Under the pieces are notes generated by a model. That model saw only the letters and a list, made by a program, of their open reading frames with translations. It was not told where the DNA came from and did no database searches. A DNA stretch of 64,000 nucleotides, from assembly GCF_056746865.1 (NCBI RefSeq), contig NZ_CM163382.1. One strand, written 5' to 3'. The position numbers were made by a program, and so were the translations under genes. Of the stretch, positions 1-55,177 are shown in pieces. Numbering within the stretch: the stretch's first letter is position 1; every line of letters begins with the position of its first letter.

Positions 1-89
1 TGATAGAGTGCTCCAAGGCTTCCACCGGTCATCAAATAACCGCCGAAAACTGTACCGAGAACAACCAGGTAACCTAATAAGATAAGCAC
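1..89 (-). CDS. motA: Flagellar motor stator protein MotA, 5' end only (gene continues beyond window start)
   Basis: Reverse complement of 1-89 translates VLILLGYLVVLGTVFGGYLMTGGSLGALYQ, matching the MotA N-terminus; GTG start at 87-89. Confidence 0.8.
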   Translation of the reverse strand, partial: MLILLGYLVVLGTVFGGYLMTGGSLGALY

Positions 90-157
90 GACATCATCCT
101 TCCACTGTTGACCATGACAGGATGTTCAGTCGTCAGGCGTTAACGCGCGATTGGGGC

Positions 158-190
158 AAAAAAAGCAGCGGTACGTCGTTACCGCTGCTG
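158..190 (-). terminator. Rho-independent terminator downstream of flhC
   Basis: GC-rich inverted repeat gcagcggtacgtcgttaccgctgc (165-188) preceded on the plus strand by an A-run, i.e. hairpin plus U-run on the minus strand. Confidence 0.6.
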
Positions 191-214
191 GAATGTTGCG
201 CCTCACCGTATCAG

Positions 215-793
215 TTAAACAGCCTGTACTCTCTGTTCATCCAGCAGTTGTGGGATAATATCGGCAGGATTCTGGGAAAGTTTACGTCTTTTTACTGCCC
301 GGGATGGCGGTTGACATAAGCTGCAGGCAAAGCTGCCAACAGGCTGGTGAGCGTGGGTAATAAAATTGCCGCCGCAGCAGTTGCAGCTGGAAAGTTGCAG
401 TAATCCACTTTCAACAAACCGCACCAATGTCCAGGCACGGGTTAATGCCAGCAGTGGTCCTTCTTCTGCTTGTGGGCACTGTTCAAGGTATAAACGGTAG
501 GCTTTGATCACCGCATCGACGCCATTACACAAACCGGTTTTCAGTAAAAACTGCCATGCATTACAGAACATCGAAGCATGAACGTTTTGTTCCCAGGTCA
601 TAAACCAGTCGGTTGAGAATGGCAGCATGCCTTTCGGCGGTGGGCTTCCGCGCAGTTCTTTATAAAGTTTTATCAGGCGTCCGCGACTTAACTGTGTTTC
701 GCTTTCCAGCATCTGCAAACGAGCGCCCAGGGTGATCAATTCCATTGCCAGCTGAATATCCCGCGCTTCCTGAACAATGCTTTTTTCACTCAT
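215..793 (-). CDS. flhC: Flagellar master regulator subunit FlhC
   Basis: 192 aa [23 protein letters not shown]... recognised as FlhC; immediately follows flhD. Confidence 0.96.
258..284 (-). promoter_or_regulatory. Candidate sigma28 (FliA) promoter for motA, inside the flhC 3' coding region
   Basis: Minus strand reads TAAACTTT, 11 nt spacer, GCCGATAT; close match to the sigma28 consensus TAAAGTTT-N11-GCCGATAA. Confidence 0.5.
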
Positions 794-795
794 GA

Positions 796-1146
796 TCAGG
801 CCCTTTTCTTGCGCAGCGCTTCTTCAGGCTGATTAACATCATTCAGCAAGCGTGTTGAGAGCATGATGCCGGTATGAATTTGCTGGAGATCGTCAACGCG
901 GGAATCTTGCGTCAACTGAGTAATCGTCTGGTGGCTGTCAAAACGGAAGTGACAAACCAGTTGATTGGTTTCTGCCAGCTTAACCATTTGCGGAAGAGTC
1001 AGTGCCGCTAACGTTGTCGCCATTTCTTCATTTATGCCGAGACGAAACATAGCGGACGCTTTGTCCTGAACAATCAAACGCTGTGCAAGTAGTAAATATG
1101 ACAAGTTGATGTCATAAATGTGTTTCAGCAACTCGGAGGTATGCAT
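796..1146 (-). CDS. flhD: Flagellar master regulator subunit FlhD
   Basis: ORF 796-1155; start trimmed to [19 protein letters not shown] to match the known 116 aa FlhD. Confidence 0.95.
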
Positions 1147-1420
1147 TATTCCCACCCAGAATAACCAACTTTATTTTTATGCGGTTTCACCGCACCCCGT
1201 GATGTCGCCGGGAAGCCCCGGTAAAAAATAATTAGCATTAGAATAGTTGCGATAAGCTGCAATAAGCAGAACCACCTTTTTGGTTTAATATGTCCTTACA
1301 AATAGAAATGGGTCTTTACACTTATCTAAGATTTTTCCTAAATCGACGCAACTGTACTCGTCACTACACGCACATACAACGGAGGGGGGCTGCGATTTTC
1401 AATAATGTGTGATGCAGATC
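1147..1420 (-). promoter_or_regulatory. flhDC long 5' UTR and promoter region
   Basis: AT-rich non-coding stretch upstream of flhD; flhDC is known to have a roughly 200 nt leader. Exact promoter elements not resolved by eye. Confidence 0.45.
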
Positions 1421-1925
1421 ACACAAAACACTCAATTACTTAACATAAATGTATAAGTCATACTTTTGTTTTGGGTGTATTTCAATCTGTTAAAAAGTTT
1501 TTCGCTACGCTAGCAAGCAAAAATGAAACAGGAATAATCGAAATGGGATGTTGCGCACAGTCAAAATAACTCACCGTAAATAATCATCTGCTATAAATAA
1601 TCACTTTCATGCAATACCAGATAAGCTATTTTTAAACAGACACTTACCGCACAACAAACTAATTAAATACAAAGAAAGGCAACAATCAACTTAATGTTAA
1701 TGAAATGTTTTGCATATATTAACCACTTGTTTAATGCGGAGAATCAGTACACTATTTTCTTATAATTACATTTGAAATTATATGATCACCGGGAGTGATT
1801 GATTAATTGTCTTTACTAATAATCAGACTAATATTTACCTGTTTGACCGAGTTGGGATTGCGTCGTTTCTCCATTAGGAGTAAAGCTTTAATGTCACCTG
1901 AAGTTCACAGAATAAGGAACAGGTT

Positions 1926-2360: not shown

Positions 2361-5713
<3,353 letters not shown>

Positions 5714-13987: not shown

Positions 13988-14074
13988 TGGTACCCGGAGC
14001 GGGACTTGAACCCGCACAGCGCGAACGCCGAGGGATTTTAAATCCCTTGTGTCTACCGATTCCACCATCCGGGC
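13988..14074 (-). tRNA. leuZ: tRNA-Leu (anticodon UAA)
   Basis: Reverse complement matches tRNA-Leu GCCCGGATGGTGGAATCGGTAGACACAAGGGATTTAAAATCCCTCGGCGTTCGCGCTGTGCGGGTTCAAGTCCCGCTCCGGGTACCA. Confidence 0.95.
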
Positions 14075-14086
14075 TCGGGAAGAAAG

Positions 14087-14160
14087 TGGAGGCGCGTTCC
14101 GGAGTCGAACCGGACTAGACGGATTTGCAATCCGCTACATAACCGCTTTGTTAACGCGCC
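14087..14160 (-). tRNA. cysT: tRNA-Cys (anticodon GCA)
   Basis: Reverse complement matches GGCGCGTTAACAAAGCGGTTATGTAGCGGATTGCAAATCCGTCTAGTCCGGTTCGACTCCGGAACGCGCCTCCA. Confidence 0.95.
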
Positions 14161-14213
14161 AAATTCTTCAGGCCTTTCAGCCAGACATCCGCTGACGCCG
14201 ATGTCTTTTAAAC

Positions 14214-14289
<76 letters not shown>

Positions 14290-24138: not shown

Positions 24139-24238
24139 GCCGGATGCGGCGTAAACGCCTTATCTGGCCTACAAAAATGTGCAAATTCAATAAATTGCAA
24201 TTCAACTTGTAGGCCTGATAAGCGCAGCGCATCAGGCA
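24139..24238. repeat. Pair of inverted REP elements (BIME) in the fliC 3' region
   Basis: gccggatgcggcgtaaacgccttatctggcctac and gtaggcctgataagcgcagcgcatcaggca are classic REP palindromes in opposite orientation. Confidence 0.75.
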
Positions 24239-25700: not shown

Positions 25701-25727
25701 TTATCGTCTGTCGTAAAACAACCTTTA
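25701..25727 (-). promoter_or_regulatory. sigma28 class 3 promoter of fliC
   Basis: Minus strand reads TAAAGGTT, 11 nt spacer, GACGATAA. Confidence 0.75.
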
Positions 25728-25819: not shown

Positions 25820-25846
25820 TAAACTTTGCGCAATTCAGGCCGATAA
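25820..25846 (+). promoter_or_regulatory. sigma28 promoter of fliDST
   Basis: TAAACTTT, 11 nt spacer, GCCGATAA, about 45 nt upstream of the fliD start. Confidence 0.75.
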
Positions 25847-46597: not shown

Positions 46598-46684
46598 AAA
46601 TCCCGACCCTGAGGGGGTCGGGATGAAACTTGCTTAAGCAAGAAGCACTTAAAAAATTCGTTACACCAGGAAATCTGATGTGTT
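46598..46684 (-). ncRNA. dsrA: DsrA small regulatory RNA
   Basis: Reverse complement matches DsrA: AACACATCAGATTTCCTGGTGTAACGAATTTTTTAAGTGCTTCTTGCTTAAGCAAGTTTCATCCCGACCCCCTCAGGGTCGGGATTT. Confidence 0.93.
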
Positions 46685-54939: not shown

Positions 54940-55086
54940 GACTCAATCATTTTTTGAACAAATAGATAAATTTTGCGCAACGGCAGTGAATACAGGAAAA
55001 ATCGTTTTGAGCGATTTTATTTATCTTTGATATCGGCTTTATTAATTCATTTAATCAATATATTAGCACTGATTACAATTATACCT

Positions 55087-55177
55087 TTTTATTATTCTGT
55101 GTCATGATGCTTCCGTTATTAGCCTTTTATCGTCTTGTTTATATTTTTTGGGCCGGCATGATGCCGGCTTTTTTTTA
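55087..55177 (+). ncRNA. rseX: Candidate small RNA ending in an orphan terminator (position expected for RseX)
   Basis: Hairpin ggccggcatgatgccggc plus T8 at 55151-55177 with no plus-strand CDS upstream; RseX is known to lie between yedR and the yedS porin gene. 5' end not determined. Confidence 0.4.

Follow-up and report, generated by a model that had tools for sequence, protein, structure and literature searches.

The Escherichia coli motR locus at the flhC-motA junction: an intragenic sigma-28 promoter, a leader-derived small RNA and synonymous codons frozen downstream of the transcription start

The window, i.e. the whole stretch of 64,000 nucleotides of contig NZ_CM163382.1 (NCBI RefSeq assembly GCF_056746865.1) that was analysed, opens with the junction between flhC and motA, both of which are read from the minus strand (Table 1). 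Several complete E. coli genomes (including APEC20/16 and F11) match the first 1,500 bases at 100% identity and have motA, flhC and flhD annotated there, and the flhC annotation at 793..215 is present in 5,400 E. coli genomes. Judged by its sequence, the window is E. coli and the locus is the motR locus. The last 26 codons of flhC also hold a CpxR-type box, a sigma-28 promoter and nucleotides 1-37 of the small RNA MotR. Conservation was assessed in a sample of 80 flhC loci, with one locus per species, which covered Escherichia, Salmonella, Citrobacter, Enterobacter, Pantoea, Erwinia, Serratia, Pectobacterium and Brenneria. The layout was constant, with motA (GTG start) lying 89 to 218 nt 3' of flhC in 78/78 readable loci, and the GTG start together with a VLILLGY N-terminus was present in all 78 junctions in which motA was found. 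Within the motA leader, GAAGGATGATGTCGTG is kept across the Enterobacteriaceae.

Table 1. Features at the left end of the window (window coordinates)
Feature	Position	Strand	Remarks
motA start (GTG 89..87)	1..89	-	annotated motA; gene continues past the left window end
Rest of motA 5' leader, 3' of the terminator	90..157	-	Shine-Dalgarno-like GGAAGGA at 103..97
U-tract	164..158	-	seven T
Intrinsic terminator hairpin, AGCAGCGGTA/ACGACG/TACCGCTGCT	189..164	-	10-bp stem, 6-nt loop; MotR nt 63-88
UCCAGCAG, MotR nt 60-67	192..185	-	five outer bases of the terminator 5' arm plus three upstream nt; putative competitor partner
MotR seed core GUG, nt 46-48	204..206	-	primers SM467/468 and M1 gBlock; GUG to CAC in MotR-M1
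MotR small RNA	251..158	-	predicted 94 nt here, 95 nt in K-12
Block C, MotR nt 2-19, CAACUGCUGGAUGAACAG	250..233	-	FlhC Q182-Q187
MotR / motAB-cheAW +1 (A)	251	-	7 nt 3' of the -10; primer match
Sigma-28 (FliA) promoter	284..258	-	-35 TAAACTTT 284..277, 11-nt spacer, -10 GCCGATAT 265..258
CpxR-type box GTAAAAAGACGTAAA (putative)	295..281	-	perfect GTAAA-N5-GTAAA; overlaps the -35; flhC codons 167-171
flhC CDS	793..215	-	192 aa, stop TAA 217..215; from the ORF list
flhD end	796	-	

The first-pass annotation had placed a sigma-28 promoter on the minus strand at 258-284, within the 3' end of flhC, and had assigned it to motA. This motif agrees with the class 3 (FliA) consensus TAAAGTTT-N11-GCCGATAA at 14/16 positions (i.e. 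two mismatches, with an 11-nt spacer), and its -10 element coincides with the codons for FlhC Ala177-Asp178. When the 64 kb were scanned for the sigma-28 pattern, allowing three mismatches at most, four matches were returned as compared to 0.59 expected, and one of 100 shuffles reached four. They were located in flhC and otsA and at the promoters of fliC and fliD. As all four are mapped FliA binding sites in ChIP-seq data (Fitzgerald 2014), the scan detects genuine sites. The identical promoter sequence in K-12 is itself a FliA ChIP-seq site, with a FAT (fold-above-threshold) score of 101 and the label (flhC)motAB-cheAW (Fitzgerald 2014). Of 79 Enterobacterales junctions that were scored, 78 had the promoter, in the form TAAACTT(T/A)-N11-GCCGATAn, ending precisely 43 nt short of the flhC end; the sole exception was a genome of Enterobacter cloacae whose spacer has lost 1 nt, a deletion that also frameshifts the FlhC tail. 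Motif scan, ChIP-seq identity and conserved position together confirmed the promoter. Its service to motA is supported by a drop in motA RNA from 302 in the wild type to 1 in a fliA deletion and by the report that the motR promoter, inside the flhC CDS, also drives motAB-cheAW (Melamed et al. 2023, eLife 12:RP87151).

MotR has been described as a sigma-28-dependent, Hfq-binding RNA of ~95 nt that derives from the motA 5' UTR (Melamed et al. 2023, eLife 12:RP87151), and it has been detected in RIL-seq of EPEC and Salmonella. The published +1 primer for MotR cloning (i.e. 5'-phosphorylated SM001, 5'P-ACAACTGCTGGATGAACAGAGAGTAC) matched window 251..226 exactly, which sets the +1 at 251; the start lies at ACAACUGC, under the sigma-28 promoter in the flhC 3' end. 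The description of the MotR* mutant as altered in 'TGC at positions 6-8' corresponds to window 246..244 and is consistent with this start. When the published 95-nt template for T7 transcription of MotR was compared with window 251..158, 94/95 nt were identical and the difference lay in a terminal tract of seven T (T7) as compared to eight (T8). The 236-nt MotR-M1 gBlock likewise matched the window, from 74 nt upstream of the +1 to the motA start codon, except for three engineered bases and one T. The K-12 RefSeq record carries an ncRNA, motR (b4828), at the homologous position, with a length of 95 nt and a 37-nt overlap with flhC. The likeness to MotR that had been noted from the geometry of the locus was thereby borne out as identity. 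Promoter, small RNA and terminator are already known, having been published and annotated in K-12, and the MotR locus itself adds nothing new; it serves as a positive control, in that an intragenic promoter and a small RNA derived from a leader were both recognised from sequence only.

The predicted fold of MotR finishes in a strong 3' hairpin, and the fold as a whole is not unusually stable (z = -1.6). A search of window 1..1600 against Rfam 15, at gathering thresholds and at E <= 1, gave no family match. Nucleotides 43-51 of MotR in the window (ACGGUGAGG) are the same as in K-12, and nt 49, next to the seed, is A in the window and K-12 and U in six other aligned E. coli alleles. Beyond Escherichia and its near relatives this published seed region is variable, and therefore the targets of K-12 MotR may not apply elsewhere.

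A hairpin and U-run terminator had been proposed at 158-190 between flhC and motA and was confirmed at 189..158, where a GC-rich stem (6 GC pairs out of 10 bp), a U-tract and pairing that is maintained across species, the marks of a rho-independent terminator, were all found. The hairpin was present as AGCAGCG…CGCTGCT followed by 6 to 9 T in 71/80 junctions (Enterobacteriaceae and Erwiniaceae), and the readable leaders of Pectobacterium, Brenneria and Serratia instead contained an unrelated stem-loop with a poor U-tract. Across 68 species the hairpin was 98% paired, with compensatory changes in three inner pairs; there were 26 double-change cells, and neither the observed covariation score nor this count was reached by any of 500 column shuffles. 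On these alignments, the hairpin is supported by covariation in the Enterobacteriaceae and Erwiniaceae. The U-tract has a mode of T8 and a range of 6 to 9 across species, with the T7 of the window at the short end. Within E. coli, T7 is a minority allele, as judged from 40 evenly spaced rows taken from 5,376 records, of which 37 span 162 nt (T8) and three span 161 nt. Two isolates depart further from this pattern: 20Y000092 has lost the U-tract and the stem's 3' end through an 11-nt deletion, and FDAARGOS_1300 has an interrupted tract (TTTCTTTT).

The leader had also been said to overlap the flhDC terminator. The hairpin starts 25 nt past the flhC stop codon and is the only terminator-like element between flhC and motA. 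With flhC RNA at 107 and motA RNA at 1 in the fliA deletion, no more than ~1% of flhDC transcription reaches motA at steady state. On the strength of the sole hairpin and these RNA values, the motR hairpin most probably also terminates the flhDC mRNA, and the overlap is supported to that extent. The examined text and supplements of an E. coli 3'-end mapping study (Adams 2021, PMC7815308) did not mention motA, flhC or MotR. A literature search on the flhDC terminator, readthrough into motA and a leader RNA switch returned nothing relevant and no direct 3'-end map of flhDC.

Taken together, the window almost certainly contains the E. coli motR locus working as described for K-12, with a FliA-dependent start at 251, MotR generated by termination at 189..158 and readthrough giving motAB-cheAW. 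Sigma-28 (FliA) activity late in flagellar assembly would lead to initiation at A251, in the final codons of flhC; part of the sigma-28 transcripts would end at the hairpin and U-tract to give the ~94-nt Hfq-binding MotR, and the remainder would pass the hairpin and become motAB-cheAW mRNA. These two outcomes (i.e. a short RNA or readthrough into motA), which the first-pass annotation had anticipated, agree with the ~95-nt band and with the longer northern bands that were put down to transcription past the MotR terminator (Melamed et al. 2023, eLife 12:RP87151). Work by others on the identical K-12 sequence has shown binding by FliA and dependence on it, the position of the 5' end, and an Hfq-bound RNA of ~95 nt together with its targets. 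Through its seed (~nt 46-48), K-12 MotR pairs with sites in the coding regions of rpsJ and fliC; it raises the levels of S10 and flagellin and leads to more flagella (Melamed 2023). Promoter, +1, seed, hairpin and genomic position in the window are the same as those of K-12 MotR (b4828; Melamed et al. 2023, eLife 12:RP87151), which differs in having 8 terminal U as compared to 7, and the strain would be expected to behave like K-12 for MotR, including FliA dependence and Hfq binding.

Two other readings of the promoter, hairpin and short RNA were weighed. Chance occurrence of promoter-like and terminator-like motifs could draw on the generic terminator scan, in which three hairpins were found as compared to 1.8 expected, without enrichment and with the motR hairpin as the strongest of the three, but it is refuted by the ChIP-seq and the RNA-seq results, the exact identity to a characterised RNA, the fixed position in 78/79 junctions and the covariation, and is given practically no weight. 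The short RNA might otherwise be a by-product, devoid of a function of its own, of a leaky flhDC terminator in the motA leader, as the poor conservation of the seed region outside close relatives and the few targets of MotR in RIL-seq (Melamed 2023) would allow. This is improbable, however, as a chromosomal motR-M1 seed mutation lowers the number of flagella in K-12, MotR binds Hfq and regulates rpsJ reporters (Melamed 2023), and the hairpin and long U-tract are conserved in two families.

A functional MotR formed by partial termination has counterparts elsewhere. StxS (from the Shiga-toxin late transcript), RhlS (Pseudomonas) and Rli51 (Listeria) resemble it in that a leader terminator decides whether transcripts from one promoter become a short trans-acting RNA or a full mRNA. 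The motA leader differs from these in starting within the upstream gene and in having a terminator that also appears to end the upstream operon. UhpU, FliX and FlgO are, like MotR, FliA-dependent, Hfq-binding and UTR-derived (Melamed 2023); of these, FliX and FlgO arise by processing of 3' UTRs, and the effect of FliX on flagella synthesis is opposite to that of MotR (Melamed 2023). FliX is also present in the 64-kb window, near 24164..24188.

The synonymous sites of flhC were compared among 70 distinct flhC genes of identical length. Third codon positions were otherwise near saturation, with a median identity to the window of 55%. Codon identity of 100% was found for 16/182 degenerate codons, and 14 of these 16 fell within codons 167-189, where they formed three blocks. 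Block A (codons 167-172; GTA AAA AGA CGT AAA CTT) covers the -35 element and a GTAAA-N5-GTAAA repeat, block B (codons 176-178) covers the -10 element, and block C consists of codons 182-187 (CAA CTG CTG GAT GAA CAG). No other six-codon window in flhC is as well conserved as block C, whose codon identity is 0.998 as compared to a mean of 0.64 for the gene. The SNPs in eight aligned E. coli alleles spare the promoter, block C and the terminator stem. The intragenic promoter is the one that has been presented as a 'duon' in bacteria (Fitzgerald et al. 2014; 2017 preprint, 2018 paper), and the frozen Ala177-Asp178 between variable residues was reproduced in the 70-gene codon analysis; the two additional blocks, codons 167-172 and 182-187, are not discussed in the text of the Fitzgerald preprint.

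Promoter recognition fails to explain block C, because this block lies 3' of the transcription start. Codon preference was tried as the cause of the frozen QLLDEQ codons and was rejected on matched Leu and Gln controls: conserved Leu codons elsewhere in flhC had identities of 0.29-0.71 as compared to 1.00 in block C, and Gln182 is fixed as the non-preferred CAA where every other conserved Gln of flhC prefers CAG. Within the 64-kb window, a complement of MotR nt 2-19 occurs only at the motR locus itself, and no explanation for block C was found in the MotR and flhC literature examined. Across the Enterobacterales, synonymous sites in the ~18 nt past the start of MotR are held as constant as those in the promoter elements. 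We suggest, tentatively, that flhC codons 182-187 reflect a third and previously undescribed non-coding constraint, one that acts downstream of the transcription start.

One candidate for such a constraint is a helix between the start of MotR and its terminator. Nucleotides 5-12 of MotR (CUGCUGGA, window 247..240) are exactly complementary to nt 60-67 (UCCAGCAG). The resulting competitor helix and the terminator stem (nt 63-72/79-88) are mutually exclusive through a common 5' arm, and 5/10 terminator pairs are contested. In flhC, the 5' segment is encoded by codons 183-185 (CTGCTGGAT). It is conceivable, though doubtful as matters stand, that this competitor helix adds to the known picture by tuning the leakiness of the terminator. 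Nucleotides 5-12 would then pair with nt 60-67 as the latter emerge from the polymerase, closure of the outer terminator stem would gain almost no free energy, and part of the polymerases would read through into motA. On flhDC mRNA, ribosomes translating the end of flhC would keep the 5' segment unpaired and termination would be efficient. The terminator might, on this speculative model, be start-dependent, i.e. leaky on untranslated sigma-28 transcripts via the competitor helix and clean on translated class 1 (flhDC) transcripts.

Folding predictions gave the competitor helix a probability of 0.97 in nascent wild-type RNA of 67-82 nt, with the terminator prevailing only once at least 88 nt had emerged, and when the upstream 59 nt were shuffled, the arm was sequestered as strongly in only 0.2% of cases. 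With the competitor formed, closing of the outer terminator pairs was nearly isoenergetic (from -23.1 to a value between -23.5 and -23.8 kcal/mol, by transcript length), so that the helix would weaken termination rather than block it, which fits a leaky terminator for sigma-28 transcripts. In MotR* (nt 6-8 to GAG), the predicted probability of the helix fell to ~0.1. This mutant was found by chance, was reported to be 'more abundant' and was left unexplained (Melamed 2023); its abundance would be accounted for if loss of the helix led to more efficient termination, but MotR* could also just be a stabler RNA. The helix was predicted in 70/71 species with the hairpin, the exception being E. albertii with an A-to-C change in the arm. 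Its 8-bp complementarity is perfect, with the 5' segment frozen at synonymous sites, and covariation is seen in the inner part of the terminator stem with the outer part invariant, as a three-way constraint would give. The helix would also suit the observation that at least 99% of flhDC transcription is kept out of motA, yet sigma-28 transcripts pass the same hairpin.

Several observations weigh against the competitor helix. At equilibrium the terminator wins by 3.8 kcal/mol. The exchange barrier amounts to only ~2.9 kcal/mol, and any effect could therefore be slight. The strings CUGCUG and CAGCAG are common. Across 68 species the helix is 99.4% paired and almost invariant; as 6/8 pairs never vary, with no double changes, it is without support from covariation. 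A second helix (nt 13-19/30-36), stacked on the competitor in the E. coli fold, was considered and discarded, since it is not conserved and one of its pairs is broken in 30/68 species. Block C is, moreover, equally conserved in Pectobacterium, Brenneria and Serratia, all of which are without the motR hairpin, and therefore some other constraint on this block must exist, at least in part. Pairing of block C with the hairpins that these three genera have of their own was not above that of shuffles (fraction at or above the observed value, 0.05-0.9). Readthrough might instead be set by protein factors, through S10-NusB antitermination (Melamed et al.), and not by RNA structure. This reading is unlikely in our estimate: it was presented as speculation by Melamed et al. 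themselves and it leaves the frozen synonymous sites unexplained.

The competitor helix invites comparison with classical attenuators (i.e. trp-type leaders and riboswitch platforms), as here too the 5' arm of a terminator is predicted to be contested by an upstream segment, and the outcome could depend on the position of a ribosome. The motR leader differs from these in being without a leader peptide, a ligand or covariation, and in that 5/10 of its terminator pairs are contested. If the competitor acted as proposed, one hairpin would stop flhDC transcription almost fully and yet allow expression of the motor and chemotaxis operon from a promoter 94 nt upstream of the end of the U-tract, and the behaviour of the MotR* mutant would be explained as well. 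The frozen blocks at flhC synonymous sites, the complementarity of nt 5-12 to the terminator arm and the loss of the helix in MotR* appear to go beyond the papers examined; block C and the competitor helix are put forward as leads for experiments and not as results.

Block A extends upstream of the -35 element into the GTAAA-N5-GTAAA repeat. This CpxR-type box is the sole match in the 64 kb, as compared to 0.12 expected, and both of its half-sites were 100% codon-identical in the 70 flhC genes. PMC9600279 gives GTAAA-N5-GTAAA as the CpxR recognition motif and motA as CpxR-repressed, citing De Wulf 2002. By its match to this motif, the putative box at 295..281 would be a binding site for CpxR.

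The strongest freezing of synonymous sites within flhC was observed at codons 182-187, downstream of the transcription start of the small RNA MotR. These codons are likewise frozen in Pectobacterium, Brenneria and Serratia, genera that lack the E. coli-type terminator. Further upstream in flhC, the sequence GTAAA-AAGAC-GTAAA is a perfect match to a CpxR-type box, with no second match within the 64 kb, and overlaps the -35 element of the motA/motR promoter. Both half-sites of the box exhibited 100% codon identity among 70 flhC genes, and the rare codons AGA and CTT are among those that are 100% identical at codons 167-172 in the same set. With this box overlapping the -35 element and its half-sites conserved, the final 26 codons of flhC therefore hold no fewer than three non-coding signals that overlap one another.

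Features of the window in and around the flhC-motA region and at other sigma-28 and RNA loci
Feature	Position	Strand	Remarks
U-tract	158..164	(-)	seven T
MotR nt 49 polymorphism	203	(-)	adjoins the seed
Frozen synonymous block	233..250	(-)	flhC codons 182-187 (i.e. MotR nt 2-19)
CpxR-type box and -35 block	278..295	(-)	flhC codons 167-172
AsflhD (b4839)	1125..1344	(+)	100% identity to the annotated K-12 antisense RNA
Sigma-28-like motif	3490..3516	(+)	TGAAATTGCACCAGATCGAGCCGATAA, inside otsA
Three tRNA genes	13991..14289	(-)	Rfam matches
FliX-S start	24164..24188	(-)	sister small RNA, fliC 3' UTR; one mismatch
ES036 (CssrF)	24175..24216	(+)	Rfam score on the same REP-containing stretch, opposite strand to FliX-S
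fliC and fliD sigma-28 promoters	25701..25727 and 25820..25846	(-) and (+)	divergent
DsrA	46598..46684	(-)	Rfam match
RseX	55086..55175	(+)	Rfam match

Natural variation was also apparent in the terminator. The U-tract consists of seven T in the window; K-12 has eight, as do the majority of E. coli and of other species. When 40 E. coli genomes were sampled as evenly spaced rows, approximately 3 contained the seven-T allele, and Nissle 1917 is one of these. Two of the flhC-motA loci retrieved from other strains carry further terminator variants: L087 (E. coli 20Y000092, NZ_CP138217.1) has lost the entire U-tract together with the 3' end of the stem through an 11-nt deletion, and the U-tract of L083 (FDAARGOS_1300) is interrupted (TTTCTTTT). 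Both variants should shift the MotR:motA balance and also change how well motA is insulated from flhDC. In locus L069 (Enterobacter cloacae DSM 26481, NZ_CP056117.1), a 1-nt deletion shortens the sigma-28 spacer to 10 nt as compared to 11 nt. It also puts the final ~20 residues of FlhC out of frame, with the altered reading frame running on into the terminator; the deletion may be a genuine variant or an assembly error. In the Pectobacterium and Brenneria loci (L073-L079), the position of the E. coli-type terminator is occupied by a different, well-conserved stem-loop of 14-16 bp (GAAUCUAUCACUGUU…), and a weak U-rich stretch lies downstream of it (UUUCUUCCUC).

Nucleotide 49 of MotR is A (GGUGAGG) in both the window and K-12 but U (GGUGUGG) in the six other aligned E. 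coli alleles and most other Enterobacteriaceae, and therefore the K-12 seed of the published experiments may be the less common allele.

Additional sigma-28 motifs were present in the window. Among the FliA ChIP-seq sites of Fitzgerald 2014 is a weak intragenic one whose sequence is identical to the otsA motif. The -10 element of fliD is GCCGATAA in the window and ACCGATAA in the K-12 table, such that the element in the window's strain is nearer to consensus by one base. Among the other RNAs, AsflhD overlaps the 5' end of flhD, and DsrA, RseX and the three tRNA genes are the neighbours expected in this chromosomal region of E. coli.
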